From: an uncultured bacterium
GTDB lineage: Bacteria > B130-G9
Assembly: GCA_965372715.1 (NCBI GenBank)
Contig: CBDVDH010000018.1
Span: 1-58,222, forward strand
Direction of reading: 5' to 3'
DNA: 58,222 bases
The stretch's first letter is position 1. Every line of letters begins with the position of its first letter. Made by a program: the position numbers and the translations under genes. The notes under the pieces were generated by a model, which saw only the letters and a program-made list of their open reading frames with translations, was not told the DNA's origin and did not search any database. Below, piece by piece: positions 164 through 38,623 of this stretch.

Positions 164-261
164 GGAGGCGGATAGGTCCTGGTGGGCCTTCTGGACTTCA
201 AATCCAGCAAGGGGCGGCAGAAACCGTCTCTGGTGGGTTCGATTCCCACACGCTTCCGCCA
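164..261 (+). tRNA. selC: tRNA-Sec (anticodon UCA)
   Basis: 6-bp D stem with 4-nt UGGU loop; CTGGA-CTTCAAA-TCCAG anticodon arm (TCA at 198-200); long variable arm; GTGGG-TTCGATT-CCCAC T arm; extended acceptor stem; G discriminator and encoded CCA. Confidence 0.97.
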
Positions 262-2125: not shown

Positions 2126-2137
2126 GAGAGTGAGGAA

Positions 2138-3352
2138 TTGAGCATTATTCACGATGCGTTGAAGCGCGCGGAGAGCGAGAAAAGGCCTCGTGGCAGCTCG
2201 CTGGCTTCCCAGAGATACGCGCCCGGGCAAAGCGGCGCCAAACGGCAGTTGTGGCAGGTTTTCGTCTCGATAGGCGCGCTCTGCCTCGGCTTTGCCGCGT
2301 TGGTTGCGGCCATTTCGCTTCTAGTTCTCCCGAGGGGGGGTTCATCCAAGCCAGAGGCGGGGACGAGGGTGGGCGATGTGGTTGCCGCAGAGAGCACGGC
2401 GCCGTCCCAGGCCGCGGGCATGCGCCCGCCGAGAACGAGGTGGGATGCGTCCGGGAAGGAGAGGGAAACCTTGGTAGCGCCGGGCCTAGTGGCTGCTCGC
2501 CAGCCAGCGCCAGAATCCCGTAAAACTGAACCGACTTTGCCGGGGGTCGATGCAAACGAGCCGGAAGATGGCGCCAAATCGCTTTCCATTTCGATGTCGC
2601 AGGATGAACTGGTAGTATCGAAGAGCGAACCGGCAAAACCTCGCGCGAAAGGGAAGATCGACATTCGGTCTGTTGGGCGTGTTAAGACTAAGCTTGAGCT
2701 TAGTCGAGAAAGGCAGGCGCGGTGCCTTTCGCACCTGGGCGAGGCCCAACGATTGGCCAACAACGGAAAGAACGAACTTGCCCGCGAGCAGTTTGAGAAG
2801 GCCCTCGCAACTGAACCGGAGAATGAGCTGGCGCTTTTGGGCTTTGGCAGTTTCTTGCTGGGCACAAATAGGCCGGTCTTGGCAGAGAGGTATCTCCGGC
2901 GAGGCATCGCGGTCGAGAGGGCCACAAAGGAGATTAGGAGTCTATTGGCCGCGAATCTTGGCTTGAGTCTCTTCGAGCAAGGTCTATTCGAGGACGCGGT
3001 GAAAGCCTATCAGGCTGCGATTGCGATCAATGACGGGAATCTTAACGCCTATAACAATCTGGCGATAGCGTATAAGAGGCTTGGAAAAAAAGAGCTTGCG
3101 AAGCGCACTTTTTCGCGGCTTCTCGTCGTAGAGACCAAGTCCCCGATGGCCTACTATGGCCTCGGTATGCTGAATGATGAGGATGGCAAGCTTGACGAGG
3201 CGATATTCCATTACTCTCGTTTTCTCGTTCTCGCCGGACGACACTATGATGATCTGCAAGAGAGTGTCAAGAAGAGGGTTGACGCTCTGAAGGCGAAGAG
3301 AGAGAGTAAGAAGAAGCGGAAGTTCGTTCGTAAGGAGCGCTACATCCCTTAG
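2138..3352 (+). CDS. ExeB/GspB-like membrane-anchored TPR protein
   Basis: N-terminal MSIIHDALKRAESE resembles the GspB-type MSxIxDALKK motif; one TM helix, low-complexity linker, several TPRs (e.g. AYNNLAIAYKRLG); directly downstream of the exeA-like gene. Confidence 0.75.
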   Translation: MSIIHDALKRAESEKRPRGSSLASQRYAPGQSGAKRQLWQVFVSIGALCLGFAALVAAISLLVLPRGGSSKPEAGTRVGDVVAAESTAPSQAAGMRPPRTRWDASGKERETLVAPGLVAARQPAPESRKTEPTLPGVDANEPEDGAKSLSISMSQDELVVSKSEPAKPRAKGKIDIRSVGRVKTKLELSRERQARCLSHLGEAQRLANNGKNELAREQFEKALATEPENELALLGFGSFLLGTNRPVLAERYLRRGIAVERATKEIRSLLAANLGLSLFEQGLFEDAVKAYQAAIAINDGNLNAYNNLAIAYKRLGKKELAKRTFSRLLVVETKSPMAYYGLGMLNDEDGKLDEAIFHYSRFLVLAGRHYDDLQESVKKRVDALKAKRESKKKRKFVRKERYIP

Positions 3353-7383: not shown

Positions 7384-10300
7384 ATGCGAGGACGTATTTT
7401 TGTTCTTGTCGCTGTGCTTTCTACGTTGTGCGTTTTGGCCGCGGAGTCGGCAGAATGGGTAAACTACTCTGAAACGTGTGATGTCCGCCACATTGCGGTC
7501 CAGGGCAACAAGGTGTGGGTCGGGACAACGAATGGCAATGGCGCCGCATCGGTTGATTCGAGCGGCAACGTGGCCTTCTATATTCCATCCGATGGTCTGG
7601 CCGCTGAAGACATAACTGCGCTGGCGTGCGACAGCCTTTCTGTCTGGTTTGGGACGGATACGGGCGTCACCATGTTCAATGGTGAGCGGTTTGAGACCTA
7701 CAACAAAGACAACAGCGGGCTTCTCACCGACAACATCCGGGCGATTGCCATCGATCCGCGCACGCTCGACAAATACATCGGCACGGAGATCGGCGTCTCC
7801 GTTTACGATGGGGTCAACTGGGAATCCTACACACCTTACAACAGCGATCTCGCCTCGCCCTACGTTTCTTCGGTCTTCGTTGATGGCGACACCGACGAGC
7901 TCTTCGTCGGAACCGACCTCGGCGTCAGCGTTATGAACATAACCGACGAGACCTGGTATCAATACAGAATTGAGCATGGGCTGGTCGCCAACAGAGTATC
8001 CAGCATCACGAAGGATACTGAGGGCAATTACTGGTTTGGAACCTACCAGGGCGCAAGTCGCTTCGACGGCGCCGATTGGCATTCCTACACCGCGACGAAT
8101 GGGCGCCTGAGCTCCGACTACGTTACCGACATCGTAGCTTCTCCGGCCGGATACGTGTGGGTCTCGACGGACAGGGGCCTGAATCGAATACGTGGCTCTG
8201 AGACCGTGGTGTTTGACGTAGCGTCCTATGGCGCCGACGGCTTAATCACCGATGTGAGTTACGCTCTCGGTTGCGACGGTTCTGGCAATCTCTGGATCGG
8301 CACCGCTCGAGGTCTTTTGGTCTTCGACGGCGAGAAGTTTGAGACCTATCTTGGAGACGGGCTCCGGAGCAACTTCATAACAAGCATCGCGACGCAGGGC
8401 AGGTCGGCCTACTGGTTCGGTACCGAGAACTCTGGCGTCAATAGGCTCGACGCCACGGGAATGGACGGTTACTACAACCTCGTCTCCGATGCTATCTCTG
8501 ACATCACCTCTCACTTCGAGGCTGGCAGATGGTATGAGTGGTTTGGCGGCGAGGACGGATTAACCATCTTTGATGGCACAAACTGGTGGGACCCCGGCCT
8601 TGCCATGGCGGTTTACAGAATGGCCGTTGAGTTCGTTGACCCTGATCCGGAGGTTGTGGATGACGAATACTGGAACAAATGGATATGCACTCAAGGGCAG
8701 GGGGTATTCCTAACAGCGACGACCATGCCGGGACTACTTGGCAACTACACGGTCGGCAACAGCGGCCTCTCGTCGGACACGGTCAACGCGGTCGCGATAG
8801 ATGATGACCATGCGAAGTGGTTTGGGACCTTAATGGGCGTCAGCATTCTCAGCCCTGATGATACTTGGTCGGGCATAACGATGCTGGACGGGCTGCCCAG
8901 TAACAACGTCTCCGCGATAGATTTCGCGGACGACGGCGTCTGGTTCGGGACTGATATGGGCGTCGCGGTCCGGAGGAGCGGCTTATGGACGACGTATCAG
9001 CACATCGGCGCGGATGAGCCGATGATCCAAGACAATTTTGCTGCGATGGTCGCTGAGGATGTGGCCGGAACCTGCGTTCGCTGGTTTGGCGGCCCAGGCG
9101 GTCTGTTGGCCTACGACGGCGCCGATTGGTCGATATACAAGGAATCCAACTCTGCTCTTCTCTCCAACGACGTTAGAGACGTCGCCATAGACTCTGCCGG
9201 AACCAAGTGGGTCTGCACGGCCGGCGGCATCGCAAGCATCGACTCAAGCAGCAATTTCTGGGTGACCCAGTCAACCATCGTCGGGTTGTTGTCTGACGAC
9301 GTTCGGGCTGTTCTTATTGGCCCGGGCGACAACAAGTGGTTCGCGACGGGCGGCGGCGTCTCGATGTTCGATGGCACGAGCTGGACGAACTTCAACGTCG
9401 ATGCCGGCCTCTGCTCGAACGACGTCCGCTGCGCCGCTATCGACAGAGTGGGCCGTATCTGGGCCGGGACCGCCTACGGAATCTGCGTCATCGATGGCGG
9501 AGCTGTAACGCTCAGCTATAACACCGGCAATTCGGACATCATAAGCGACGACGTCAGGGCGATCGTTATCGACCGGAATGGCATCAAGTGGCTCGCGACC
9601 GATGCCGGCGTCTGCAAGTTCGATGGTCATTCGTGGCGGACCTACAATTCTGCCTCGACTCCTTCGGGGCTGCCCTCGGACGACGTTCTTGACCTTTACA
9701 TTGATACTGATTTCAATCTCTGGGCGTGCACCACGCTTGGGGTCGCTAAGTATGACTATGCCGAATGGCGTGTTTTTGGGCTGGACTTCGGGCCGCTCGG
9801 CTATCAGATCAGCTTTGTCGGCGAGGATTGCCTCGAGGATGTCTTCTGGTTCGGCACGCAATACGGCCTCGTCAAGTTTGAATCGGGTAATTGGCATCTT
9901 TATTCCGGTGTTGGCCTTGGTTCCAATACCGTGCACGACCTGAAGGTCGATTCGGCCGGGAAGGTCTGGGTCGCCACCAATTGGGGTGTGTCGGTGTTTG
10001 ACGATGGCCTTTGGATGACTTATAACCGCGCAACTGGCGGTCCTGCGCACGACGTCGTCAACCGCGTAACGGTCGATTCGGACGACAACAAATGGTTTGC
10101 TACAGCAGGTGGCGGCGCTAGCCTCTATCTCGAGAATCACGATCCTGGCCTCTCGGACCCCGAATTGACGCCCAAATCCGGTCTTCCGGCGCTTCCGAAG
10201 CTCGAGGGCTCCGGCACCGAGTTCGATTACTCGGTCTATTACTTCGATCCGGACGTTGATTTCGCTCCCCTGGGATACTCCACAGAAGCCTATGTACATA

Positions 10301-12945
10301 TAGATGGCATTCCTTATGACATGTCCCTTGCGTCCGGCGCCGGCTATAACGGACGGTATTCCTTCTCGATCGTGGACCTTCCTGAAGGACGGCACACGTA
10401 TTACTTCTACTTCGTGAAGGAGTCGGGCAACATTGTGAAGCTTCCCGAATCGGGTGTTTTCTCGGGGCCCGTCGTCGATGGCTCGCCGCCGGCGTCGGCT
10501 GCCTACGCGGATGAATCGATGCTACCTTACACGAGGTACACCCCGCTTTTGATTCACTACTCCGCCGAGGATATAGAAAGCGGCATCTCCTCTGTGGCGC
10601 TTTACGTGAGGCAGACTGGCGAGGATTGGTCAAATACTGGCCTGACATCAACCAAGCCCTATGGTGTCTTCAACTATTCGACCTATTCTTCTGCAACGTA
10701 TGAATTCTGCTCGATCGCAACGAATCACTCGGGCCTTGTGGAGCAGCTTCCGGACGAGGCGGACTGCACTGTTGTCTATGACCGACTGGCGCCGAGCTCC
10801 TCGATAACCGCATCCTCGGGCAGAGCGTATAGCATGCCGGTGATGAGGCTGCCGTATGGCGCAAACGATGCCGAGAGCGGCGTTGACTATGTCGAGCTTT
10901 GGCACATGCACGAGGACGACCTCGACTTCGGGCGGTTCCCCGTAGCGACGCTCCAAGGCGAAAGTGGGCTGTTTATATACACTGCTGAAAAGGAAGGGTG
11001 GCATCTGTTTTATACGATAGCGGTTGACAAGGCTGGGAATCGCGAGGCCACGCCTCCGTCCTATTACCACTTCCGGATTTCCTACGACGGCACGCCGCCC
11101 GAATCGAGCTGCTCGACGATCGAGTTTGTGCGCACTTACTTCGATGTCAACTTCACCGCTAATGATGCGCAAAGCCGCGTGAGGAGCGTTGATCTGTATT
11201 ACAGATTCGACAGCGGCGCGCTTGTCCATTACGATACGGTCTATTACGGGAATGAGGGCGCCTTCCATTTCATTGCCCCGCAGGACGGGGTTTATGAGTT
11301 CTACACGCAAGCGATCGACTGGGCCGGCAACTACGAAGAGCTGCCGGCGGTTGCGGATGCGAGGTGCACTTCTGACATCACGCCTCCAACAGCGACCGCG
11401 ACCCTCCCTGAAGCGACGAATCAGCGAACTGTCAGGGTCCCATACAGTGCGTCCGATGAGACCTCTGGTGTCGCGGAAGTAAAGCTTTGGCTCAAATACA
11501 AGACTAGCGAATGGCTTGAAACCCCACTTTCATCCGAATACCGTGAGGGTGAGTTCCGGTTCCCATTCCTCCAGGGCGAGGGGCAATACCGCATCGCGAT
11601 GGTGGCGGAGGACCGCGCAGGTAACCTCACGCCGCTTACAGAGGATTCGGGTAGTGTGGTCCATTATGAGACTGTTTCTCCCCAATCCTATTCTTGGTGC
11701 GAATCCACTGGGGAGTCCGCGCCATTCATGGTTGAGTTCTCATCGACCGACGAGGGAAGCGGGCTTGATACCGTTCTTCTCTACTATCGCTACGAGGGCC
11801 GGCTGGATTGGACACTGGCTGATGGTGTTTACTTAGGAACCCCTATGGGCGGTTCGTTCTTGTTCTTCCCGGTGGAGGGAGGCGGATACTATGAGTTCTA
11901 CACGCTTGCCGTTGACAAGGCGGGCAATATGGAGCTCCCGCCGGCGCATGCGGACTGTTCCGCGGTCATTGACCTTGCGCCTCCTACGTCAACTGCCGCT
12001 GCGCCTGTCTCTGTTATGCTGGAGCCCTTCTACGTTGATTTCCAGGCGGAGGATGACGCGTCCGGCGTGATGTGTGTTGAGTTGTGGTATGCCTATCAGG
12101 ACGGGGGCTACGCCAGATTCGATACGGTCTGGGGCAGCGAGGCGGGCAGCTTCGAGTTCATGCCGGAAGAGGGAGCGGGCCTTTATTCGTTCTACTCTGT
12201 GGCAACCGACAGAGTGGGCAGGAAAGAGGCGGTTCCAGCGGCGGCGGATGCTGTTACGGATTACAATCCGGCTGGCCCCGCTTTGTCGCTCTCTGAGGAC
12301 GAGCACGATTTCGGCATGGTGCTGGTCAATGAGAGAGGCACCTGGACTGTGCGCGTCCTGAACACGGGCGACGCGCTCGTTACGGTCGAGAGTGTTGCCA
12401 CATCGACTGCGAGGTTTGAGGCCGATTTCAGGGCGCCGACCTCGATAGAGCCTGGGGGATACATTGACGTCGCGATTACATTTGCGCCGAACATGCCTGC
12501 GTTTTTCGAGGACAGCGTGAGGGTCGCAAGCGACGATCCAAATGCATCGGAGCTTTTTGCGCGCATTACAGGTCAGGGCGTGAACGAGCTGCCGCCGACA
12601 ATCAGGCTGACGAGCACTGCATCGAACGTAACCCAAGATGACCGTCTGATAGTTTCTGCACGGTTGTCGAATCCGGGCGCCGACATAACAGTTGATGTGT
12701 ATGTCGCGACTAAGCTGCCCGGTTCGGACACGCTCTACTTCTACCCAAGTTGGGCCTCGTCGCCGCGGGCGACCACTCTAACCCTGACGGAGGGGTCCGA
12801 GTTTGGCCCCGCTCCACTTCTCGACATCTCTGTTGGCGAGGGCATCGAGAAGGGCGAGTACGTAGTGTTTGGTGCTGTGGTCGCTGTTGGCACTCAATTC
12901 GAGATTCTTTCAGATATCTCCACTTTGAACATAATCGTTGAGTAG
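7384..12945 (+). CDS. Giant secreted repeat protein 1 (~1853 aa): propeller repeats, 6 Ig-like repeats, 1 ASH-like domain, shared C-terminal domain
   Basis: ATG 7384 with AGGAG RBS; signal peptide MRGRIFVLVAVLSTLCVLAAESA; many GL.SN.V..I..D..G..WFGT..GV propeller blades; repeated SGV..V.L.Y...YEF.T.A.D.AGN.E units. Confidence 0.88.
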   Translation: MRGRIFVLVAVLSTLCVLAAESAEWVNYSETCDVRHIAVQGNKVWVGTTNGNGAASVDSSGNVAFYIPSDGLAAEDITALACDSLSVWFGTDTGVTMFNGERFETYNKDNSGLLTDNIRAIAIDPRTLDKYIGTEIGVSVYDGVNWESYTPYNSDLASPYVSSVFVDGDTDELFVGTDLGVSVMNITDETWYQYRIEHGLVANRVSSITKDTEGNYWFGTYQGASRFDGADWHSYTATNGRLSSDYVTDIVASPAGYVWVSTDRGLNRIRGSETVVFDVASYGADGLITDVSYALGCDGSGNLWIGTARGLLVFDGEKFETYLGDGLRSNFITSIATQGRSAYWFGTENSGVNRLDATGMDGYYNLVSDAISDITSHFEAGRWYEWFGGEDGLTIFDGTNWWDPGLAMAVYRMAVEFVDPDPEVVDDEYWNKWICTQGQGVFLTATTMPGLLGNYTVGNSGLSSDTVNAVAIDDDHAKWFGTLMGVSILSPDDTWSGITMLDGLPSNNVSAIDFADDGVWFGTDMGVAVRRSGLWTTYQHIGADEPMIQDNFAAMVAEDVAGTCVRWFGGPGGLLAYDGADWSIYKESNSALLSNDVRDVAIDSAGTKWVCTAGGIASIDSSSNFWVTQSTIVGLLSDDVRAVLIGPGDNKWFATGGGVSMFDGTSWTNFNVDAGLCSNDVRCAAIDRVGRIWAGTAYGICVIDGGAVTLSYNTGNSDIISDDVRAIVIDRNGIKWLATDAGVCKFDGHSWRTYNSASTPSGLPSDDVLDLYIDTDFNLWACTTLGVAKYDYAEWRVFGLDFGPLGYQISFVGEDCLEDVFWFGTQYGLVKFESGNWHLYSGVGLGSNTVHDLKVDSAGKVWVATNWGVSVFDDGLWMTYNRATGGPAHDVVNRVTVDSDDNKWFATAGGGASLYLENHDPGLSDPELTPKSGLPALPKLEGSGTEFDYSVYYFDPDVDFAPLGYSTEAYVHIDGIPYDMSLASGAGYNGRYSFSIVDLPEGRHTYYFYFVKESGNIVKLPESGVFSGPVVDGSPPASAAYADESMLPYTRYTPLLIHYSAEDIESGISSVALYVRQTGEDWSNTGLTSTKPYGVFNYSTYSSATYEFCSIATNHSGLVEQLPDEADCTVVYDRLAPSSSITASSGRAYSMPVMRLPYGANDAESGVDYVELWHMHEDDLDFGRFPVATLQGESGLFIYTAEKEGWHLFYTIAVDKAGNREATPPSYYHFRISYDGTPPESSCSTIEFVRTYFDVNFTANDAQSRVRSVDLYYRFDSGALVHYDTVYYGNEGAFHFIAPQDGVYEFYTQAIDWAGNYEELPAVADARCTSDITPPTATATLPEATNQRTVRVPYSASDETSGVAEVKLWLKYKTSEWLETPLSSEYREGEFRFPFLQGEGQYRIAMVAEDRAGNLTPLTEDSGSVVHYETVSPQSYSWCESTGESAPFMVEFSSTDEGSGLDTVLLYYRYEGRLDWTLADGVYLGTPMGGSFLFFPVEGGGYYEFYTLAVDKAGNMELPPAHADCSAVIDLAPPTSTAAAPVSVMLEPFYVDFQAEDDASGVMCVELWYAYQDGGYARFDTVWGSEAGSFEFMPEEGAGLYSFYSVATDRVGRKEAVPAAADAVTDYNPAGPALSLSEDEHDFGMVLVNERGTWTVRVLNTGDALVTVESVATSTARFEADFRAPTSIEPGGYIDVAITFAPNMPAFFEDSVRVASDDPNASELFARITGQGVNELPPTIRLTSTASNVTQDDRLIVSARLSNPGADITVDVYVATKLPGSDTLYFYPSWASSPRATTLTLTEGSEFGPAPLLDISVGEGIEKGEYVVFGAVVAVGTQFEILSDISTLNIIVE

Positions 12946-13000: not shown

Positions 13001-16000
13001 ATGCGAGATAGGCTAGTTGTATTGCTCATGCTGCTGTTTTGCCTCGGGGGTTCGGCGGCCCTGGGCCAGGAATGGTATGTCCGCGTCAACAGCGATGACA
13101 TCAACGCCGTCTCCGGCGAGAGCGACTCCCTTTGGGCTGTGACCAACGGCGGGGGGACTCTCCTTTGGGACATGGACTCCATGGAGCTTGACAAGTTTGT
13201 CACATCTCAGCCCGATCTTTATTCGGATGAGGAAGATATTGGCGCCACTGTGCGCGTCTGGATCAGAGATGACCTCCTGACCAACTCGTTCACATCGGTC
13301 GCCGTTGGGCCTTCAAACACTGTGTGGCTGGGTTGCAGCGAAGGCATCAACGTAGCTGACATTTCATCGGGCAACGCGTGGGAGTTCACCTTCACAACAT
13401 ACACGGTCGCCAACTCGCCGCTTCCCTCCAACCTGATTACTGTGGTCGAGGCGCGTCCTGGCACAGAGGAGGTCTGGATCGGGACACAGGACGCTGGGCT
13501 CGCAATTTACGACGTAGCGGCGGGCACTTGGGACCTTTACGATGTGTCCGCCGGGCTCGCATCGAACAGGATAAACTGCATCTACTTTGACGAGCACGAG
13601 CGGGCATGGATCGGAACCGACTCCGGGGTAACGCAGATCAATATGAACTTCGACCCGTGGGCGTATTTGACGTACACAACGACCGACGGCCTGCCGTCCG
13701 ATTTCGTGACGGGCGTGGTCGAGGTCCCGTGTTGCTGGGTGTGGTTTGCGACCAACAACGGCGCGGCCCGTGTTGACCTGAACGACAACTGGGATACCTA
13801 CGGCACGTGGACCGACGGCAACTTCGTCTCGAACGACCTGCGCGGGATCGCCCCGGTCGATAGCGAGCTCTGGATGTGGACCGAGCTCGGGATTATTGTT
13901 CACGATCTTGGCACCGAGGCCTGGTCCTGCTTCACGACTGACAACACCGGCGGCGACCTTTGCTCCGATGACGTCCGGGATGTCTTCGATACCGGCAACT
14001 ATCTCATCGCCGGAACTCAGGGCGGCCTGTGCGAATACGACGGCGATTGGGATTGTTTCTGGGAGGAACACCTCGCCTCAAACGACCTGCGTGCAATCGC
14101 CTGCCAGGACGGCCAGGTGTGGTTCGGAACGTACGGCGACGGGGCGAATCTCCTCTCAGACTGGGATGCCAATAATGACGAGCCTGGGACGTGGGAGACG
14201 TTTTCTTATGCCCCAAGCGACGCGATCGCATCCAATTATATAAATGATATAGCGCTAGACAACCGGCTCGACGAGAACGGTGTCTGGTTCGCAACCAACC
14301 TGGGGGTGAGCTACTTCGCCTATCCGTCGTTGTGGACCACGTTCGACATCAGTAACACGTCCGGCGGGCTGCCCTCGGACCGCGTGATGGCCGTTGCGCT
14401 CGACCCCAGGGGTTATGATGGCGGTGTGGCAAGGACCTGGTTCGGAACCGACAACGGTCTGGCGTGCTACACGGCGGGCGCAACGACCCATTGGGACACA
14501 TTTACAACGGCGAATAGCGGCCTTCCCTCCAATTACGTAACATGTCTCGCGGGCGAGGTCCGAGGCGACGACTACTACCTCTGGATTGGGACCAACTGGG
14601 GCGTTGCGGTTCTTGACGTCGTGAACGACTCCTGGACGGTCTATGACAAGAGCAACAGCGACATCCTTTCTGAGAACGTCCGCTGCCTTCTGGTCGATAG
14701 CGACGGGTCGATCTGGATAGGAACCACCAACGGCATCAGTATCCTCGATCTGCCCAACACGTGGACATCGATCAGGACGAGCACCCCGGGCTCGGGCCTC
14801 GGCAGCAACGCCATCAACGCGATGATCCAGGGCTCCGGCAATCTATACTGGGTTGCTACAAGCCGGGGACTCACCAAGTTCGACAAATCGACCATGACCG
14901 GCAGCCGATACTTGCCGACCAACAGCGGGCTGATCAACGGCAATGTATATGACGTCTGCTATCAGCCGTGCGTCGGCGTTTGGGCGGCAACCAGAGGAGG
15001 CGCCTCGGCGCTGAGGCAGGGGATGCCGATTCTTTCCGACGAGTCGGTTGAGCCGCCGGTGGGCGGCCCGCTTGATGACTATACGTTCAGCGTTCATTTT
15101 GAGGATTTTGACGGATTTGCGCCGTCGTCGGCGACCTTGACCGTTGGCGCGACGGCATACACGATGACACTGGCGTCCGGCACGGCGGACAATGGCTATT
15201 ATGCTACCACTGTGAGCCTTGCGCCCGGGCACTGGACATTCTTCTTTGAGTTTGTGGACAGCGACGGCTGTCAGGTTCGCCATCCCACGGGCAGCGATGT
15301 GTTCGATGGGCCTGACATTTACGATGCGTTCGAGCCTGATGACCGTTGCTTCGATGCGCGGCTTATATGGGCGGACGGGACCGCCAGCGCCTGGCACAAC
15401 CTCATCCCGCTTGGCACGGACGAAGACTGGTTCTACTTCAGGGCCGAGGCATACATCGAATATGCCGTTACCGTGTCAGCTGCATCTGGCGCCTCCGCGG
15501 ACGTGGAGATTTATCAGGGCGATTGCGCTACTCTGGCGGGGACCGGGGACTCATCGGCGCCATTTGATTTCGTGGCCGATGCTGGCGGCTATTATTTCGT
15601 CAGGATAATCGACCAGGGCTCGTCAGCTGCGAGCGCAGGCGCATACACGCTTGCGGTTTCGGGCAACCAATGGCCGATGATGGGGCATTTCTTCACGAGA
15701 GCCGCGACGATTTCGGCCATCGCGCCCCACGCCTATTGCGACGTTCTGACATATTCGACTGGACCAACAATCGCGTCGAGCCCGGCCGTTGATCCCGCCG
15801 GCAACCTCTACTTTGGCGCGTCGTATGGACGGCTCGTATCGGTTGATCCCTTGCTGGAAGAGCGATGGGTGTTTGAGTCCGGCGACTCTGACCCGGTAAT
15901 GGTCTCGCCGGCGCTTTCGCCGGACGGTTCTGCGGTCTATTTCGGCACTCAGGATGGCTACTTCTACGCTGTGAACACAACGACGGGCATCATGGATTGG

Positions 16001-19000
16001 TTCTACGGCGCCGGTTCCGAGATATTCTCCTCACCCGTTGTGGATGCCGACGGCAACATTTACTTCGCGTGTTACGACGGTACCGTGTATTCACTCGACG
16101 CAGGCGGCGGCGACAGATGGTCAACGTCTGTCAATTGCTCTTTCCTGAACTGTTCGCCGACGCTCTCACATACAGAGATTCTCTATATCGGTTCTACCGA
16201 GGGCATATTCTATGCAATTGGGTGCGCGGACGGCGTCATAGATTGGTCTTACGACGTGAGCTATCCAATCCGCTCCACACCGTCCGTTGATGGGGACGGC
16301 AACATCTATTTCGGCGCGGATGACGGGAACCTGTATTGCCTGAATCCCGCCGGCGCGCTCAGGTGGACTTTCGAGACCCAGGGAGCGATCGAGGGCCACG
16401 GCGCCTTCGGCGCCACGGGGCGCTATTACTTCGGCTCCACCGATGGCCTATTCTATGCGCTCGACTGCACCGCGACGGAGGCGGTTGTTATCTGGTCGCG
16501 CGACGCGGGCGGCGCGGTTCACGGCCCTGCTGTCGATGGCAACGGGCGAGTCTTATATGGATCCGATGGGGGCACCCTCTATTCGTCCACGTCATTTGGT
16601 GCGTTGAGCTGGTCCCAGAACGTAGGCGCCCCGATCACCTCGTCGCTGGCAATCGGTCAGGATCACCAGTTGTTCTTCGTGGCCGGCTACAACACTGTCT
16701 ATGCTCTTCGTTGCGACAACGTGGACCCCGCTCTGACCTTCCCCGAGGTCGCTCCGATGATGGGCATGGCGGGCGATACGTTTACATATTCCGTCTATTA
16801 CACGGACGTGAACGGCGACAATCCCGCCAAACGGTATGTGGTCGTCGATGGCGAGCCGATAATTCTGGAATATCAGGCCACGACAGGTAGATACATTTAC
16901 GCCACGCAGTCCACAGTCGAGGGGTCGCCCCACACCTATTACTTCTACTTCGAGGACGGCTACGGCGGCTTCGCACGCGCTCCTAAGACAGGAGTGTTCT
17001 ACGGTCCTATCGTTGATGACGCTCCGCCCAGGTCGCGGTGTTCGAGCCCGATTGGGACCAACCAACCGATCATCGAGGTTGACTTCGTTGCGGCGGATGA
17101 TGGAAGCGGCGTTTCATCCACTAGGCTCTACTACGCGTTCAGCGCGGACGATGACGCTTGGCCCCTGATTGCCGATGCTATCAACACGGGCCTCACGCTA
17201 GTGGGCGACACGGGCACATTCATGTTCCAGCCGGGCGACGGCGCGGGTTACTATGGATTCTATACGGTTGCGACCGATAGGGCTGGTTTCGTGGAGGACC
17301 CGCCGCTCTACTATTACGACACGATAACGCTTTACGACCCAGATCCACCGGATTCACGTGTCGCGAATCTCCCCTCAGCGTTCGCAAGCACGCCGTTTGA
17401 CGTTACGTTCCAGGTGCGGGACGACTTCTCAGATGAGTTCACGATCAGACTCTATTACAGGTACGATCACGGCGACTGGGTCGATTCCGGGCTCGATACT
17501 TTCGTGATAACAGGCTTTAATCCTATGAACGGATACTGGAGCGGTAGCTTCTTGTTCGACGCTACTTATGGGCAGGGCCGCTACGAGTTCTTCACCGTCG
17601 CGACCGATGAGATGGGCAACACGCAGGATTATGACGCCGCCATGGGCCTGTCTCTATACACCTATTATGACGTTATCACGCCGGAGTCTCAGGCTAGCTG
17701 CGAGCCTTATACGAGGACGCTGCCCATGAACGCTAGGTTCACGGCGAACGACGACCTGGCTGGGGTCGAAGGACTCACGGTTTATTATCGCTATAAAGGC
17801 GAGACAGATTGGACACAGGCCAACGAGTTCGATCTCGGCGGGCCCTGGCTCTCGTATTCTGGCGCCTTCACGTTTGGGCCGGATGTCACTGGGGGCTATT
17901 ATGGTGAAGGGGAATACAGCTTCCACACAATAGCGAGAGACGCGGCCGGCAACACTGAACCAGCGCCTCAGCCGGATACGGACCCCGACTGCTCGGTAGT
18001 TTACGACGCAACAGCGCCGAGGTCCCACACCTCAGCGTCCGGGTTCCTGACCGCCGGCGATATCCCGGTTGCTTACTACGCCTCGGATAACGTTTCGGGG
18101 CTTTCCGAGGTACGGCTGTTCTATAGCTACGGGGATGGCGCGTTTGTGAGAAGCGCCTACGTAGCGTCAGGCGAGGCCGGCACGTTCGATTTCAGCCCCG
18201 CGAATGGTGACGGCGTTTATCATTTCTACACTATCGCGACCGATCTATGCGGCAACGTCGAATCGCCGCCGATTACGTTTGATTCAACCACTACCTATGA
18301 CACTCTGCCGCCGACCTCGAATAGCTACTGTTCCAGGGAGAGCTACATGGTGCCGATACTGGTTTATTACAGCGCAAGCGACATCGTGAGTCATATTGCT
18401 GAGGTCACGCTTTGGTTCAGGTTTGAGGGCGGCGAGTGGGAGGACACCGGCATGTCGATGGAGGGCGACAGCGGCATGTTCGAGTTCATGCCAATGCCAC
18501 ATTTAGGCCAAGGGCGCTACGAGTTCCAGACGATTTCGACGGACACGGCCGGACACACGGAGGCCTTCAAGGACGAGGCGGACTGCTACACAGAGCTGCT
18601 CTATGTAAAGCCGAGTTCGCGCGGCTCGTGCGATCCATACACAAACGAATCGCCGATAGAGATCAGCTACACGACCACCCCCAACGCAGCCACCATACGG
18701 CTTACCTATTTCTATCAGTATGGTGATGATTGGCTGGACGTTACGGTCGCGACGGTTGGCACCCCTTACACGTTGGAGTTTGAGCCGAAGGAGGGCGAGG
18801 GGACGTATTCGTTCAGGCTTTGGGCGAGCGACATAACTGGCGATGAGGAAGGCCTCAAAGGCGTAGATTGCAGCACTATCTATGACGTTAGCATCCCTTC
18901 GTCCACTTGCTCGAGTCCCGAGGGGACCTGGCGGCACTACGTTGACATCCAATACACGACGGACGACACGTGGAGTGGTGTGGATACAGTCGCTCTTTGG

Positions 19001-20620
19001 TATAGATACGAGGACCCGGAGGACGCGACTCGAAACGTCGCTTGGCAGGATTCGGGAATGTCTCAGGGCCAGGGTCCCGGTTCCTTCAGGTTCGTGTTCC
19101 CGCATGGTCTGGGCGTTTACTATTTCTACACTCAGGCGTCTGATAGGGCGGGCAACATGGAGCCAACTCCGCTGGGGGCGAAGACGAGCGTCCGATACGA
19201 GATCGGCGCCCCGACTTCCAGGTGCTGGGTCAAGACCAGGCCGTTCTCTACTCACATGACGAACGACAAGGATGCTCCGATAGAGATACTATTCGAGTCG
19301 AGCGACGCCAATGGCAACTCCAGCGGCATTCGCGAGGTCAAGCTATACTACGCGTATCTGATGATGCCGCCTGACCCGATCGATGACTGGACCGGGCACG
19401 ACATTGAATGGCGCTTCACTGGTCAGTCGGTCGCGCCCGACGTTGGCTATTTCCACTTTTATCCGAATGACGGTAATGGCTTCTATGGGTTCTACACGCA
19501 GGCCGTTGATTTTGCGGGCAACGCGCAGGAGCGTCCGCTCCTCAAGTTTGATGTCCCGCTCGGGGTTCCTTACTGGGACGCCTACATCACCTACGATGTG
19601 ATTGCGCCGATTTCGGAGTGCTCAACGGCTGAAGGCTCGGTCGAGGACGGCCTGATATGGATCAGTTACCAGGCCGACGACGACCCGTTCCTGTCGGATA
19701 GTTGGCCGGAGCTTGACTATGACACCACGGGCATCTCAATCGTTACGCTCTGGTATCGCTTCAACGGCGGCAGCTGGACGGAAAGCCTCGACCCGAACTG
19801 TTGGGGCTACGGTGAGCAGGGGACGTTTGCCTTCCAGCCGCCTCTGGGCTTCGGGACCTACGGCTTCTGCACGATAGCCGAGGACGTCGCCGGGAACGTG
19901 GAGAACCTCCCGCAGGCGCCAGACTGCACGGTTGTATATGGTCCGTTCGAGCCGCAGATTGAGCTTTCTGCAACGAGCCATGATTTCGGGGTCCTCTCGA
20001 TCGGGGCAATCCAAGAATGGCAGCTGCGGGTATTCAACGTTGGGACAGGAGACCTCGTCGTAACGAATATGTATGTGGACAACCCAGATACATTCACGGT
20101 TGACCCAACGACGGCCCTGATTCCGGCGGGCGAGTGGTTTGATGTGATTGTGGGCTTCCAGCCCTGGCAGATAGGGGTCACGGACGCGACTTTGACGATC
20201 CAGTGCAACGACGAGGACTCGAGGATCAACGAGGTTGGGCTTACCGGGACTGCTGTCGGGCCGTTGGGGCCAACGCTGCTTTTGAGAACGCCGACCCGAC
20301 TCGTGAGGCCCGGCGATGAGATCGTGGCGTCAATCGGCCTTGCCGGCATCCACGAGGACGTCGAGGCGGACCTCTATATCGCCGTCATGCTCCCCACCGG
20401 AGAGGTGCTCTACTACCCCAATTGGTCGTTCGAGCCGACTGGCCTTCGGCTAGCGCTGCCGGCCGGATTTGACCTGCAACCGACGGAGTTCTTGAGGCTG
20501 CAATATATCGCAGGCGTCGTCCCGAAGGGCGAATATAGGCTCTTCGCGGCGCTTGTTGAACCGGGCACACAGTTTGAGTTTATAAGTTCAATCGCAGAGA
20601 CCAAATTGGTTCTGTATTAA
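13001..20620 (+). CDS. Giant secreted repeat protein 2 (2539 aa): propellers, PPC-like domain, PQQ-type propeller, 9 Ig-like repeats, ASH-like domain, shared CTD
   Basis: GGAGG RBS; signal peptide; propeller blades; DAFEPDD...DEDWF; WPMMG followed by SSPxxDxxGxxYFG blades; Ig-like repeats. Confidence 0.88.
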   Translation: MRDRLVVLLMLLFCLGGSAALGQEWYVRVNSDDINAVSGESDSLWAVTNGGGTLLWDMDSMELDKFVTSQPDLYSDEEDIGATVRVWIRDDLLTNSFTSVAVGPSNTVWLGCSEGINVADISSGNAWEFTFTTYTVANSPLPSNLITVVEARPGTEEVWIGTQDAGLAIYDVAAGTWDLYDVSAGLASNRINCIYFDEHERAWIGTDSGVTQINMNFDPWAYLTYTTTDGLPSDFVTGVVEVPCCWVWFATNNGAARVDLNDNWDTYGTWTDGNFVSNDLRGIAPVDSELWMWTELGIIVHDLGTEAWSCFTTDNTGGDLCSDDVRDVFDTGNYLIAGTQGGLCEYDGDWDCFWEEHLASNDLRAIACQDGQVWFGTYGDGANLLSDWDANNDEPGTWETFSYAPSDAIASNYINDIALDNRLDENGVWFATNLGVSYFAYPSLWTTFDISNTSGGLPSDRVMAVALDPRGYDGGVARTWFGTDNGLACYTAGATTHWDTFTTANSGLPSNYVTCLAGEVRGDDYYLWIGTNWGVAVLDVVNDSWTVYDKSNSDILSENVRCLLVDSDGSIWIGTTNGISILDLPNTWTSIRTSTPGSGLGSNAINAMIQGSGNLYWVATSRGLTKFDKSTMTGSRYLPTNSGLINGNVYDVCYQPCVGVWAATRGGASALRQGMPILSDESVEPPVGGPLDDYTFSVHFEDFDGFAPSSATLTVGATAYTMTLASGTADNGYYATTVSLAPGHWTFFFEFVDSDGCQVRHPTGSDVFDGPDIYDAFEPDDRCFDARLIWADGTASAWHNLIPLGTDEDWFYFRAEAYIEYAVTVSAASGASADVEIYQGDCATLAGTGDSSAPFDFVADAGGYYFVRIIDQGSSAASAGAYTLAVSGNQWPMMGHFFTRAATISAIAPHAYCDVLTYSTGPTIASSPAVDPAGNLYFGASYGRLVSVDPLLEERWVFESGDSDPVMVSPALSPDGSAVYFGTQDGYFYAVNTTTGIMDWFYGAGSEIFSSPVVDADGNIYFACYDGTVYSLDAGGGDRWSTSVNCSFLNCSPTLSHTEILYIGSTEGIFYAIGCADGVIDWSYDVSYPIRSTPSVDGDGNIYFGADDGNLYCLNPAGALRWTFETQGAIEGHGAFGATGRYYFGSTDGLFYALDCTATEAVVIWSRDAGGAVHGPAVDGNGRVLYGSDGGTLYSSTSFGALSWSQNVGAPITSSLAIGQDHQLFFVAGYNTVYALRCDNVDPALTFPEVAPMMGMAGDTFTYSVYYTDVNGDNPAKRYVVVDGEPIILEYQATTGRYIYATQSTVEGSPHTYYFYFEDGYGGFARAPKTGVFYGPIVDDAPPRSRCSSPIGTNQPIIEVDFVAADDGSGVSSTRLYYAFSADDDAWPLIADAINTGLTLVGDTGTFMFQPGDGAGYYGFYTVATDRAGFVEDPPLYYYDTITLYDPDPPDSRVANLPSAFASTPFDVTFQVRDDFSDEFTIRLYYRYDHGDWVDSGLDTFVITGFNPMNGYWSGSFLFDATYGQGRYEFFTVATDEMGNTQDYDAAMGLSLYTYYDVITPESQASCEPYTRTLPMNARFTANDDLAGVEGLTVYYRYKGETDWTQANEFDLGGPWLSYSGAFTFGPDVTGGYYGEGEYSFHTIARDAAGNTEPAPQPDTDPDCSVVYDATAPRSHTSASGFLTAGDIPVAYYASDNVSGLSEVRLFYSYGDGAFVRSAYVASGEAGTFDFSPANGDGVYHFYTIATDLCGNVESPPITFDSTTTYDTLPPTSNSYCSRESYMVPILVYYSASDIVSHIAEVTLWFRFEGGEWEDTGMSMEGDSGMFEFMPMPHLGQGRYEFQTISTDTAGHTEAFKDEADCYTELLYVKPSSRGSCDPYTNESPIEISYTTTPNAATIRLTYFYQYGDDWLDVTVATVGTPYTLEFEPKEGEGTYSFRLWASDITGDEEGLKGVDCSTIYDVSIPSSTCSSPEGTWRHYVDIQYTTDDTWSGVDTVALWYRYEDPEDATRNVAWQDSGMSQGQGPGSFRFVFPHGLGVYYFYTQASDRAGNMEPTPLGAKTSVRYEIGAPTSRCWVKTRPFSTHMTNDKDAPIEILFESSDANGNSSGIREVKLYYAYLMMPPDPIDDWTGHDIEWRFTGQSVAPDVGYFHFYPNDGNGFYGFYTQAVDFAGNAQERPLLKFDVPLGVPYWDAYITYDVIAPISECSTAEGSVEDGLIWISYQADDDPFLSDSWPELDYDTTGISIVTLWYRFNGGSWTESLDPNCWGYGEQGTFAFQPPLGFGTYGFCTIAEDVAGNVENLPQAPDCTVVYGPFEPQIELSATSHDFGVLSIGAIQEWQLRVFNVGTGDLVVTNMYVDNPDTFTVDPTTALIPAGEWFDVIVGFQPWQIGVTDATLTIQCNDEDSRINEVGLTGTAVGPLGPTLLLRTPTRLVRPGDEIVASIGLAGIHEDVEADLYIAVMLPTGEVLYYPNWSFEPTGLRLALPAGFDLQPTEFLRLQYIAGVVPKGEYRLFAALVEPGTQFEFISSIAETKLVLY

Positions 20621-28763: not shown

Positions 28764-31700
28764 ATGTTGTCTAGATGGCGGTTAGTTGTATTCGTCTCGG
28801 CGATTGCTGGTCTCTTGGCTGTCTCCGCCGTTGGCGTGTTTTGGCAGCATTTCATCAACAGCGACGACGTCAGGACGATCGTTCTAGATGGGGATGAACT
28901 CTGGGCGGGCACGCACAAAGGTGGCTTGTTGCATCTTTACGATGTTACGACCACCAGCGCGTCCTTTGAGAGGTGGACTGTCGAGGATGGTCTGCCGACG
29001 AACAGCATCTATGCGCTCGCACACACAACAGATCAGCTGTTTGGCGAGGAGCTGTGGTGGCTTGGAACTGAGGGCCTTGGTCTGCACGCGTTCGAGCCTA
29101 CTACCGCGAGTATCGTTGATTCGTTCACAACAGCTGACTCAGATATCCCTTCCGACAACGTCCGCGCGCTTGGGCCGATGATGGGCATGACACTCAGTCA
29201 CGAGCTGTGGGTCGGAACGGACGCAGGCCTCGCGCTGCTCCAGTATTTCTTCGGGTTTGACGCGTGGACTGTCTATACCACGGACGACGGCCTTCCAGTA
29301 GATGACGTTGATATCACATCGGTGTTTGCCGATGCTGCTGGCAGGACTTGGTTTGGCTCGCTCGGCACAGGCGTCATCTTCTATATGGATATGGTCTTGC
29401 CGCCTTTGTCGTACCTCGATACATCAAACAGTGAGTTGCCCAGCAACAATGTCACTGCAGTCGCTCGCTCGGACCAGCCGGGTTTAGGGGAGATAGTCTT
29501 CTGTGGGATGGAGGACTACGGACTTGTGGGGTTGTGGGTTGATGATGGCCCAATGGGCAGCGCGGGCACAATCGCCCGCTACCCGCCAGGCGATATGAAT
29601 CTTCTCGGGCTTCGCTTTAACTCGATTGACGGGAGACCCGGTTTGCCCTCCGACCGTGTTCTCTCTCTTGAGTTCGACGGTGATGGCAACCTTTGGATCG
29701 GCACCGACGCGGGTGCAGCTCGTTGGTGGGTCATAAATCCCTCCGAAAGCACGATTACACTGCTGACGGGCGTTACTCGAGTTGTGAATGACATTGCGGC
29801 CGCAGGGAGCGTGATGATTCCCGACGACACGATAGTGTATCTCGGGACAGACTGGCGCGTGTGGTCGTGCTGGCGAGAGCTGGGTGAGATCGATTATGCT
29901 GTGAGCAACTTTGAGTATGAGGACCAGATTCCTGCCAACTACGTGCCCTCAGTTCACTCTACGGCCGACGGCAGCTACGAGGACGCATGGGTCGCGACGG
30001 AGCAGGGAGTCAGCTGGTTTGACGGAACCGGCTGGACGACCTGGACTGTCGATGACGGGCTTCCCGCGACGCCAACAGTGGTCAGGCCCAACGGTTCCAC
30101 GATCTATATCGGAACAGAAGACGGCCTGGCCGTCCTCGATTCTGGGACTGGTGCAATAACGGTCTATTCCTCGCCACCACTTCCGAGCAGCTACATCAAT
30201 GATGTGGAGGTCAGTGGTGCGCTGATACTTGTGGCAACCGATAACGGCGGCGCGGGCTTCTTGGGCGCCCCACCGTTCAGCGGGTTCCTGACCGGTTACG
30301 ACCTCACGTCGATTGCAGTTGATGACGAGGGTGAGCAGTGGTTTGGCAGCGACGCTCATGGGCTCTTTAGGGGGACTAGCGGGCTGGTCTCCTACGACAC
30401 GGGCAACAGCGACATCTTGTCCGACTTCGTGAGAGACGTTGCGGCGGTCGGCGACAACGTGATCTTTGTTGCGACTGACGACGGAGTGTCCCGTTTGGAT
30501 AAGGACACCCTTATCTGGACGGATTATCAGACCCCGGACCTCCTTTCGAATGACGTGCGATGTATCGCGGTTGATCCTCAAGGCCTCCGCCCAACCGGTT
30601 ACGACATTTTCCCATTCAGCGAACACGTTTTGTTCGGGACCCCCAGCGGGGTCAGTAGGCTTTTCAGATACACCGACATGTCGGGCGTTGTTTATGCGGC
30701 TTGGTCCGAGTTCGTGTACGACCCAGATGGCCCCGTCGCGGACTCGATTCTGAGCGACAACGTCTTCGCCGCGAACGTCTTCGCGGGACGATTGACGGGC
30801 GCGGGCTTCCCGGATGAGTTCACGATTAGTTGGTTCGGACACGATTCCGGCGCGTCATATAGAGCACAGGGATTGCCGGTCCTGTCAAACGGGACTGACG
30901 TGGTCTCTGTTGAGGAGAACACCAGCTTCGACCTGAGCGTTTATTATGAGGACGACGAGGGCGAGGCGCCGGTTCTTCACAACGTCTATCTTGCGGATGA
31001 CAATGTTGATGGCCCCTACGACTGGCGGTGGGATATGTCGGCAGTCGGTCCTGATAATCCGGGCACTTGGAGCTGCACCACGAGCATGGACCGCGGCCGT
31101 TACTTCTTCTACTACTACTTCGTTGACGATGACTACACTGCCGCGTGGCTGCCTGCCGGAAACGGCTACTACAATGGTATTTACTGCCACGACGAATACG
31201 AGGATGATGGCTCCTGCGACGCAGGCAACACCCTCACGGTTCTTCAGCCTGGCGATCTTGTGGGCATTGAGAACCACAGCCTTATTTTCAGCCCTTACGA
31301 GCAGGACCGCGACTGGTATGAGACCACGGACACGCTGACCGCGGGGTGGTATTACCATATTTGGACACACAACCTGGATAGAGCGGACACGGACATAGAG
31401 ATATGGTCCGGGCCTGATTGCGACTCGGCGGTGTATGAGACGGGCGTTACCGGGGACGGCGGAGCTGTTGATATTTGGTGGGAGTGCGGTGTCACTCAGA
31501 CTCACTATATCATGGTGGTTGATGGCCATCCTTGGACACCGGGTCCCGTCCCGATATCATACAACTACGACCTGGCCATCGCTGAATATGAGGTGGACCA
31601 ATACGAGCCCGACGAGGTCTGCGACGATGCTGTGCCGATAGACCCAGACTGCGTAAGCCAACGCCACACGCTAGCGCCTCACGACGACGTTGATTGGTTG

Positions 31701-37811: not shown

Positions 37812-37840
37812 CACAGCTTCCGGCCGCAGTTGAACATAAT

Positions 37841-37994
37841 GTAGGGGTGCTGCTTGCTGCACCCTAAGGCTGACGTAGGGGCGGTGCTTGCCCCGCCCTT
37901 CATATGTTCCGGTCACATCAGAGAAGGGCACGGCAAGCGGTGCCCCTACAATGGCCGTTCGTGGCGCAACGGGTGCGACAAGCAGCGCCCCTAC
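37841..37994. repeat. GTAG-family REP cluster left of RAYT (4 REPs)
   Basis: GTAGGGGTGCTGCTTGCTGCACCC (37841), GTAGGGGCGGTGCTTGCCCCGCCC (37875), and inverted copies ending CCCCTAC at 37925-37949 and 37971-37994. Confidence 0.9.
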
Positions 37995-38016
37995 AATCAA
38001 TGGATGAGGAGGTTCC

Positions 38017-38613: not shown

Positions 38614-38623
38614 AGAGGCGGCT

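Follow-up and report, generated by a model that had tools for sequence, protein, structure and literature searches.

The four giant proteins encoded in the DNA analyzed here (a 58,222-nt contig of an uncultured bacterium, below called the window) all end in copies of one domain, and this tail is a real, autonomous domain whose large family is unnamed in both Pfam and NCBIfam. We tentatively favor, with a probability of about 0.4, reading the tail as a portable address or attachment module which would be kept on mature exoproteins and recognized by a common receptor. In poorly known phyla, the tail family picks out a group of exported proteins. Because neither Pfam nor NCBIfam has a model for it, the proteins that carry it are annotated as hypothetical or by their passenger domains only, and a name for the family would improve secretome annotation of Coatesbacteria-like organisms. 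Phylogenetic profiling with a single tail HMM would also offer a direct way to study how giant proteins and enzymes of these bacteria come to sit on the cell or outside it.

Giant proteins of the window and their shared tail

Four giant ORFs of 1850-3015 aa lie on the + strand of the window, with a homologous tail at every C-terminus. Their features are given below; bit scores are those of an independent HMM, which represents 161 domain copies and excludes the window sequences and their close orthologues.

7384..12945, + strand: giant 1, 1853 aa from the ATG at 7384 (ORF open from the GTG at 7249)
13001..20620, + strand: giant 2, 2539 aa
20661..28658, + strand: giant 3, 2665 aa, order of parts as in giant 2
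28764..37811, + strand: giant 4, 3015 aa, order of parts as in giant 2
12262..12543, + strand: choice-of-anchor D / HYDIN-type Ig domain of giant 1, directly upstream of tail 1
~19937-20218, 27972-28235 and 37146-37391, + strand: choice-of-anchor D equivalents in giants 2-4
12589-12942, + strand: tail copy 1, 118 aa, to the last residue, 96.7 bits
20264-20617, + strand: tail copy 2, 97.0 bits
28308-28655, + strand: tail copy 3, 98.8 bits
37455-37808, + strand: tail copy 4, 97.2 bits

The ATG at 7384 is also where the database cluster P0005 (1853 aa) begins. Giant 1 is composed of a Sec signal peptide, a Reg_prop propeller region, about 4-5 OmpL47/Big_13-type modules of ~100 aa each, a choice-of-anchor D/HYDIN Ig domain, and, after a linker of ~15 aa, the tail. 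Giant 2 runs from a signal peptide through Reg_prop, a PQQ/BamB-like propeller, repeated modules, and choice-of-anchor D to the tail, and giant 4 has five choice-of-anchor D domains ahead of its tail. The choice-of-anchor D family is named for its occurrence ahead of varied C-terminal anchors. The possibility that the tail is a diverged copy of this upstream domain was ruled out (hhalign probability 1.3%).

The four window tails are 115-118 aa long (~117 aa in the family overall), share 25-31% identity with tail 1, and have seven invariant columns in an alignment of the four. They matched one another in pairwise BLAST (E 2e-10 to 4e-22) and the independent HMM at E about 1e-29. Both methods agree with the initial annotation, which had described a homologous domain at the end of all four giants. 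The tail bounds given above lie within 3 nt of those originally drawn, and the strands it had named as terminal (LNIIVE, TKLVLY, AHFDVN, and VTWVFE) are the true last residues of the proteins. Six-frame translation of the window and three short related loci (L001-L003) gave 611 ORFs with a length of 60 aa or more, among which the independent HMM found nothing beyond the four tails and the orthologous tails of those loci. The loci were obtained from a scan with a 6-sequence alignment and the pattern PDG[TS][LFY]LFYP, which returned giant 4 orthologues in all three cases and is no measure of distribution. Their tails are 69-72% identical to tail 4. One of the records, L003, is labeled Candidatus Coatesbacteria, and the same label appears in the NCBI names of P0123 and P0164, which supports this lineage label and agrees with the initial annotation, where similar tails had been linked to that group.

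Besides the Sec signal, searches of Pfam and NCBIfam gave no known export route across the outer membrane for the giants. The same searches on giants and tails gave no TM anchor, LPXTG, PEP-CTERM, SLH, autotransporter, or T9SS CTD, as had been noted from the sequence. No secretion machinery was found near the giant genes in the 58-kb window or in the three short loci, nor were the T9SS core genes (PorK/L/M/N, Sov/SprA, PorU, PorV). The window also contains an MlaD gene, which hints at a diderm envelope.

A large family without a model

A profile of the four tails matched 553 cluster representatives at E ≤ 1e-3 and 74 at E ≤ 1e-10 in a search of 1.84 billion representatives, so the family comprises more than 550 clusters at 50% identity. 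The domain thus extends beyond the giant paralogues, as the initial annotation had supposed, to many unrelated proteins with Sec signals. Pfam (E ≤ 10) and NCBIfam (E ≤ 1) returned 0 families on the four tails, and no family model lay over the tail in 34 aligned family members or in the 142 matching proteins scanned (99 at E ≤ 1e-3 and 43 at E ≤ 1e-6). Searched against PDB sequences, the tail profile gave no match below E 0.2. The ESM Atlas had no entry for the window tail, and the homologues P0017 and P0010 retrieved unnamed “hypothetical” clusters alone and no model there, with the leads Ceramidse_alk_C and SlaA-like remaining below 0.9. The accessible portions of the literature on Coatesbacteria and choice-of-anchor sorting yielded neither the tail domain nor secretion in the phylum; the available excerpts of PMC12343361 and PMC11878542 mention neither.

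The passengers of the tail fall into more than 20 unrelated families. These include giant propeller/Ig-repeat proteins, C25 and S8 peptidases, multihaem cytochromes, redoxins, FGE-sulfatase-fold proteins, and beta-helix proteins; other partners are pectinesterase-like, BNR/sortilin, and esterase domains and sensor-type propellers. Most of the matched representatives have Sec signal peptides, and a hydrophobic N-terminal segment is present in 90 of the 115 matches that begin with M and reach 200 aa or more. Many of the matches belong to a single Reg_prop+tail family of ~450 aa, of which P0049 is a member. No known anchor was seen on the scanned tail-bearing matches.

The tail is probably an all-beta module with a putative beta-sandwich fold. 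Most of its conserved positions hold hydrophobic residues, Gly, or Pro, much like those of a fold core, and the conserved aromatics (Y14, Y38, F50, W54, Y92, and W/F94) alternate with hydrophobic residues, as in buried core strands. In 12 orthologue pairs, the tail showed no higher conservation than the remainder of the protein, and in two of them it was among the least conserved parts. This lack of excess conservation means that there is no sign of a strongly constrained interface.

The aromatics and the partner list also bear on the suggestion that the tail binds substrate as CBMs do, with an environmental polymer as its target instead of the cell's own envelope. The presence of the domain at either end of proteins, its tandem copies, its conserved aromatics, and its beta-helix/pectinesterase-like, BNR/sortilin, esterase, and peptidase partners would all suit such a role. 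However, redoxins, multihaem cytochromes, FGE-sulfatase-fold proteins, and sensor-type propellers have no polymer substrate, the aromatics follow the alternation of buried strands, and no CBM family matched the tails or the scanned tail-bearing matches. We regard this explanation as quite improbable.

Position, copy number, and role

We counted positions in the best 150 of the 553 matches. A copy stood at the extreme C-terminus in 121 of them (C-terminus only in 117, both ends in 4), and 94 of these 121 copies ended 0-2 residues ahead of the stop codon. The domain was N-terminal only, immediately behind the signal peptide, in 11 of the 150 and truly internal in about 8, and 26 had 2-3 copies, with up to three in tandem. 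The expectation that the domain would be strictly C-terminal therefore described the majority and broke down on the N-terminal-only, internal, and multi-copy matches: it is not strictly a C-terminal signal. Copies away from the C-terminus are unable to serve as a cleaved C-terminal export signal, and the domain therefore also has a role in the mature protein. Preference for either end combined with multi-copy use is a pattern typical of attachment modules.

A tree of 186 copies showed ~33 position switches, versus 51-57 in the five listed of 200 shuffles, and the non-C-terminal copies were scattered among C-terminal ones in 14 small clades and 14 singletons. In the lineage of the window, we saw a single C-terminal copy on all four giants and on one C25 peptidase and no other use; N-terminal and tandem copies may be a feature of other lineages.

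The ends of the C-terminal copies were also compared with two classes of known C-terminal element. The last residue among the 121 was most often E (47), followed by K (15), P (14), and R (12), with Y (3) as the sole aromatic. The beta-signal of outer-membrane proteins has a terminal aromatic residue. An autotransporter or outer-membrane barrel, which takes at least 250 aa, was rejected given the tail's 117 aa, the absence of a Pfam match, and an aromatic last residue in just 3 of 121. A short TM-type sorting signal (PEP-CTERM, LPXTG, or GlyGly-CTERM) was rejected as well, as the proteins finish with an alternating stretch that resembles a beta-strand, and they match none of these families. In nine matches, of 16 listed, that extend 8-44 aa past the domain, no anchor was recognizable by eye in the extension.

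The C25 peptidases provided a case of exchange. The tail lies immediately behind the catalytic domain in 9 of 42 homologues (at least 46% identity), and more distant homologues carry FlgD_ig, Por_Secre_tail, or Dockerin_1 at that same C-terminal end; in P0171, a dockerin also directly follows the catalytic domain. In this one enzyme family, the tail behaves like a part interchangeable with a T9SS CTD, FlgD_ig, or dockerin.

Such a slot also fits a second explanation, put forward in the initial annotation, in which C-terminal copies act as a genuine secretion or sorting signal, perhaps cleaved, for a dedicated outer-membrane translocon or attachment machine. The machine would be a divergent T9SS or an undescribed system, with N-terminal and internal copies as relatives that do not act as signals; FlgD_ig is similar in that it takes in the internal domain of FlgD as well as CTD-like tails. 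The 94 of 121 chains that stop 0-2 residues past the last strand fit a C-terminal recognition signal as well as they fit an attachment module. Also consistent with a signal are the extreme C-terminal copies in 121 of 150 matches, the diversity of passengers with signal peptides, the C25 peptidases in which the tail takes the place of Por_Secre_tail or FlgD_ig, the giants of 1850-3015 aa with a Sec signal only in a possibly diderm cell (MlaD), and the tail's location directly behind a choice-of-anchor D domain. The 11 N-terminal-only, ~8 internal, and 26 multi-copy proteins argue against it, as do the absence of any conserved linker or cleavage motif found ahead of the tail, the lack of secretion machinery near the genes, and the differences from T9SS CTDs given below. 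On balance, we consider a dedicated sorting signal conceivable but doubtful.

We return to the attachment module as our preferred reading. After Sec export, the tail would stay on the mature protein, and exoproteins with nothing else in common would be tethered through it to a shared receptor, located either on the cell envelope or on a partner protein. The features that point this way are the absence of a family model, the >20 passenger families, the either-end placement and scattered tree positions, the C25 slot, the lack of a known anchor, and a likeness to DUF11 (below). Those that weigh against it are the linkers, the absence of excess conservation, and the exclusively single, C-terminal copies in the window lineage. 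The tail has no long flexible linker ahead of it, unlike many dockerins and CBMs.

Comparison with known systems

At the level of sequence profiles, we showed the tail to be without homology to T9SS-type CTDs, in line with the initial annotation, which had seen no obvious CTD pattern. The models TIGR04183, TIGR04131, PF18962, PF13585, and PF13860 did not match the tails, the type A Por_Secre_tail model was found in none of the 34 family members and 142 scanned tail-bearing matches, the type B models were absent from the 34 members and FlgD_ig from the tails of the 142 matches, and hhalign against 11 T9SS-type CTDs, FlgD_ig-type tails among them, gave a probability of 0.7% (positive control, 91.5%). 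T9SS CTDs are compact Ig-like sandwiches of seven strands (3+4). The two also differ in size, with CTDs of 58-81 aa as delimited in PMC11285876 versus 115-118 aa for the tail. They are alike in forming the extreme C-terminus, beta-rich in CTDs and probably so in the tail, of unrelated Sec-exported cargo, with the chain ending at the last strand, and in using the same slot in C25 peptidases. A single copy that is always at the extreme C-terminus describes T9SS CTDs and the window tails but not the wider tail family, which also has N-terminal, internal, and tandem copies.

The tail bears a partial likeness to the DUF11 (PF01345) repeats of cell-surface proteins. The hhalign probability was 84.1%, or 78.5% with a profile lacking the window sequences, over ~46 N-terminal columns only; one CARDB sequence reached 54%. 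Both domains start with a Y-x-(P)G-D/E stretch followed by a strand ending in N-x-G, whereas the motifs L-P-D-G..F-Y-P-x-W and P-x-G-x-Y in the C-terminal half distinguish the tail. DUF11 forms long internal arrays, while the tail domain is mostly single and terminal. Neither Pfam DUF11 nor Pfam CARDB was found on any tail scanned. The DUF11 giants P0041 and P0133 gave weak, multi-stretch matches to the tail profile, and P0133 had 0 matches in a PDB sequence search.

This likeness is part of a further proposal, in which the tail has a generic structural role as an Ig-type beta-sandwich that caps or spaces, similar to DUF11/CARDB and with no common partner or address function, whose C-terminal bias reflects descent within a few expanded paralogous families. 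The partial 78-84% match, the weak matches of P0041 and P0133, the fold-core-like conserved positions, and a rate of change equal to that of the rest of the protein are compatible with a spacer, and so are the tandem and internal copies and the concentration of matches in the ~450-aa Reg_prop+tail family. However, a spacer would not be expected at the chain end in 121 of 150 proteins or right behind the signal peptide in 11 more, nor joined to >20 unrelated passenger families or swapped with known address modules in C25 peptidases. We find this proposal rather doubtful.

The DUF11 and T9SS comparisons meet in a broader scenario, in which Coatesbacteria and further uncultured lineages would have an undescribed pathway for outer-membrane export and surface attachment, with the tail as its cargo tag. 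The tag would be a functional analogue of the T9SS CTD that arose independently, out of a DUF11-like surface-protein repeat. We judge this scenario unlikely; if true, Sec-exported proteins of 2000-3000 aa would get to the cell surface by this pathway.

Many members of both families, the tail and Y_Y_Y (PF07495), follow Reg_prop propellers. In hybrid sensors, Y_Y_Y has a membrane helix and a kinase after it, whereas the tail ends the protein and also occurs on non-propeller proteins. P0028 has one marginal Pfam Y_Y_Y match within a tail copy (E 1e-3). That the tail is a Y_Y_Y domain was not demonstrable (hhalign 8.7%).

Attachment modules are the final comparison. SLH and CWB2 modules, which anchor proteins to the envelope, are portable terminal tags, sometimes repeated, that are kept in the mature protein. 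Dockerin, SLH, and LysM-type families were not found on the giants (E ≤ 0.01) or on the tails (E ≤ 10). Type I dockerin (PF00404) is a Ca-binding helical pair with a cohesin type of receptor, while the tail is probably a beta-sandwich with short linkers and has no sequence relation to it. The two are nonetheless alike as portable tags, mostly at one end of unrelated exoproteins and sometimes repeated, and the logic of the tail would be that of dockerin, SLH, or CWB2 modules.

The four giants and their shared tail

The window encodes four giant proteins in tandem on the + strand, separated by gaps of 40–105 nt. Their lengths are 1898 aa (1853 aa if translation starts at 7384, the likely ATG), 2539 aa, 2665 aa and 3015 aa. 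Judged from the sequence, all four have a Sec-type signal peptide at the N-terminus. A Reg_prop propeller region comes first in all four, followed in giants 2–4 by a PQQ/BamB-like propeller, then by a run of OmpL47/Big_13-type modules of ~100 aa each, and then by choice-of-anchor D / HYDIN-type Ig domains, of which a giant has between one and five. Pfam and NCBIfam matched the ~100-aa modules weakly as Big_13 or OmpL47-type, and each is closed by a D-x-A-G-N-x-E motif at a spacing of roughly 100 aa (e.g. at residues about 1700–2420 of the database protein P0003). The giants end in the following tails.

Tails of the giants
12589-12942, +, tail 1
20264-20617, +, tail 2
28308-28655, +, tail 3
37455-37808, +, tail 4

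The last 115–118 residues are mutually alignable, with 25–31% identity to tail 1 and seven invariant columns. Pairwise BLAST between tails gave E-values of 2e-10 to 4e-22, and an independent HMM, built from 161 copies in other proteins with the window and its close orthologues left out, scored the four tails at 96.7–98.8 bits. The shared C-terminal domain noticed in the initial annotation is therefore real, far beyond chance. Among 611 six-frame ORFs from the window and three related loci, this HMM otherwise found orthologous tails only.

Tail 4 has orthologues of 69–72% identity at three loci in a genome scan. One is labelled Candidatus Coatesbacteria bacterium and has the same downstream gene order as the window (XerD, a small membrane protein, a UshA-like cytochrome protein). 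Another of the three, L001, encodes two consecutive giants, both ending in a tail. Other metagenomes contain tail matches at 80–85% (P0006-8), 71% (P0009), 69% (P0015) and 55–69% (P0017, P0023 and P0019); judged by these, each giant appears to have orthologues there, in which case the paralogues would be old. The rest of the window holds housekeeping genes (pheST, dxs, ispA, NAD kinase, hcp), and an MlaD gene hints at a diderm envelope. The window contains no T9SS, sortase or exosortase gene and no PEP-CTERM cargo, and the portion of the sparse Coatesbacteria literature available to us yielded no account of secretion in the phylum.

Other features of the window
164-261, +, tRNA-Sec gene (Rfam 75.6 bits, also ARAGORN)
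428-3352, +, ExeA-like AAA ATPase with C-terminal peptidoglycan-binding domain, TPR protein next; 298.6 bits on TIGR03015 (XrtA/PEP-CTERM-associated ATPase; cutoff 324.5)
37926-38744, 27-nt GC-rich hairpin repeat, six copies in three pairs, spacing 45 nt
38017-38613, RAYT (REP-associated tyrosine transposase) gene
40188-about 41600, −, UshA-like gene
42582-43346, −, lone Cas6 gene, flanked by ABC ATPase and MlaD genes
54171-56213, +, caspase (C14) domain fused to FGE-sulfatase-fold domain

The UshA-like gene best matches the NCBIfam '(seleno)protein' model UshA_like_PCGU (248.9 bits; cutoff 275). With TGA read as U, its frame extends upstream as far as a segment of membrane or signal type, crossing one TGA that lies within a P-C-G-U motif at about 41442-41444; the product is likely a selenoprotein, and ORF callers would cut the gene short at 41393. 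Hairpin pairs lie before, inside and after the RAYT gene, the internal pair coinciding with a low-complexity insert that divides the NCBIfam match into two stretches; the same 198-aa gene is encoded in the related locus L002. No CRISPR-like array was found within 37800-50000. The weak GldK/PorK score of the C14 fusion (87 vs a cutoff of 350) stems from the FGE fold only; elsewhere this fold is a tail partner (P0038, P0051, P0101, P0153).

A family with varied passengers and flexible position

None of the four tails is assigned to a family by Pfam at E ≤ 10 or NCBIfam at E ≤ 1, and no family covers the tail region in an alignment of 34 diverse members. A PDB sequence search returned nothing below E 0.2, and the ESM Atlas look-alikes of two stored tail homologues were unnamed clusters. 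The domain extends beyond these paralogues: among 1.84 billion cluster representatives, the four-tail profile matched 553 with E ≤ 1e-3, of which 74 reach E ≤ 1e-10 and 6 reach E ≤ 1e-30.

Pfam was surveyed on 142 of the 150 listed best matches (99 + 43), leaving out the 8 longest or remaining proteins. Partners comprise Reg_prop and PQQ propellers, PKD, AhpC/TSA redoxin, the FGE-sulfatase fold, multihaem cytochromes, beta-helix/pectinesterase-like domains, sortilin/BNR, S8 and C25 peptidases, DUF3160, DUF4932, DUF6345, DUF362, FG-GAP, arylsulfotransferase, a PHB-esterase-like domain, He_PIG, Temptin_C and several Ig types. Among tail-bearing proteins from the best 150 that start with M, a hydrophobic N-terminal segment is present in 90 of 115 (at least 200 aa) and a possible lipobox in 12 of 112 (at least 250 aa). 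The expectation of many unrelated signal-peptide proteins was thus borne out. The N-terminal part of one tail-bearing protein, P0097 (220 aa), has a weak likeness to PamT, a pilus protein of CPR type (32.6 bits vs a cutoff of 240), which hints that lineages other than diderms may have the domain as well.

Domain position in the best 150 of 553 profile matches
C-terminus alone, 117
Both ends, one copy each, 4
Immediately behind the signal peptide and nowhere else, 11
Elsewhere, 16
Full-length copy absent, 2 (P0032 and the DUF11 giant P0133)

In 94 of 121 C-terminal cases the domain ends 0–2 residues from the protein end, and 47 of the 121 proteins have E as their final residue. The 16 proteins placed elsewhere include 7 with a 17–44 aa extension after the domain, two of which (P0077, 112 aa; P0109, 110 aa) start inside it and may have an incomplete N-terminus; one further protein, the DUF11 giant P0041, matches weakly. 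By eye, no recognisable anchor was seen in the 8–44 aa extensions of nine listed matches. In the remaining 8 of the 16 the domain is truly internal, and 26 of the 150 carry two or three copies, so that the domain is not strictly C-terminal as initially envisaged, and the internal placement held to speak against a sorting tag occurs in a minority of proteins. A FastTree of 186 copies requires at least 33 position changes, compared with 51–57 in the five values printed out of 200 random reassignments of the labels, and non-C-terminal copies fall among C-terminal ones as 14 small clades and 14 singletons. From these counts and the tree, the C-terminal preference is strong, not obligate.

The C25 slot and the role of the tail

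The C25 peptidase P0123 has a C25 propeptide, a catalytic domain ending at 956 and a tail at 964-1078. Its NCBI entry is that of a hypothetical protein from a Candidatus Coatesbacteria MAG, which agrees with the similar tails mentioned under that name in the initial annotation. The tail lies at the exact C-terminus in 9 of 42 homologues (E ≤ 1e-10), these nine being at least 46% identical. More distant homologues end in other modules according to precomputed Pfam, with positions checked for five of the set plus P0171.

C-terminal modules of more distant C25 homologues
FlgD_ig: P0185, P0187, P0188, P0191, P0193, P0201
Por_Secre_tail: P0196, P0197, P0200
Dockerin_1: P0171

Judged by these assignments, and in this one enzyme family only, the tail takes the place of two kinds of address module: one kind directs secretion, the other attaches non-covalently. 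Six tail-less homologues (P0170, P0172, P0173, P0176, P0180, P0182) share a short C-terminal ending that may be another sorting motif; it is of the type Y/F-L-P-L/I/M, after which come a few residues and then a basic one.

A true secretion or sorting signal, as first proposed, is kept alive for the window's own lineage, where only single C-terminal copies are seen; overall we consider it rather doubtful. Copies that follow the signal peptide, lie internally or are repeated in tandem must act in the mature protein, because a cleaved C-terminal export signal cannot account for them. A retained address or attachment module is the most economical single role given that the domain favors either terminus, occurs in one to three copies, has a wide range of passengers and is exchanged with dockerin and CTDs, and we tentatively favor it at a probability of about 0.4. 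Against this retained module count the lack of a known receptor, the short linkers before the tail, the finding of no excess conservation and, for the window's own lineage, the restriction to single C-terminal copies among those seen. A generic structural sandwich is an unlikely reading of the same domain, and a substrate-binding module quite improbable.

Relation to known domains

The tail is inferred from profile comparison to be an Ig-like beta-sandwich, a distant ally of DUF11/CARDB surface repeats with a C-terminal half of its own. Its key conserved positions are Y14, N28, D36, Y38, P44, F50, P52, W54, L67, G90, Y92, W/F94 and F/W115. Against 34 DUF11 repeats, mostly from P0041 and P0133, hhalign gave 84.1% (E 7e-6), or 78.5% without the window sequences, the confident part covering only ~46 N-terminal columns in both cases. 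Pfam confirmed these two proteins as DUF11 arrays, which explains their weak multi-stretch matches to the tail profile. The giants' own choice-of-anchor D copies (1.3%) were rejected as relatives, and kinship with three Y_Y_Y domains (8.7%) was not demonstrable.

Compared with 11 T9SS-type CTDs cut from C25 homologues, the tail gave a probability of 0.7%, while a control in which four tails of FlgD_ig type were compared with four of Por_Secre_tail type gave 91.5%. Neither T9SS CTD model is matched by the tail. At 115–118 aa it exceeds the 58–81 aa of the T9SS CTDs mapped in PMC11285876, which are seven-strand 3+4 sandwiches.
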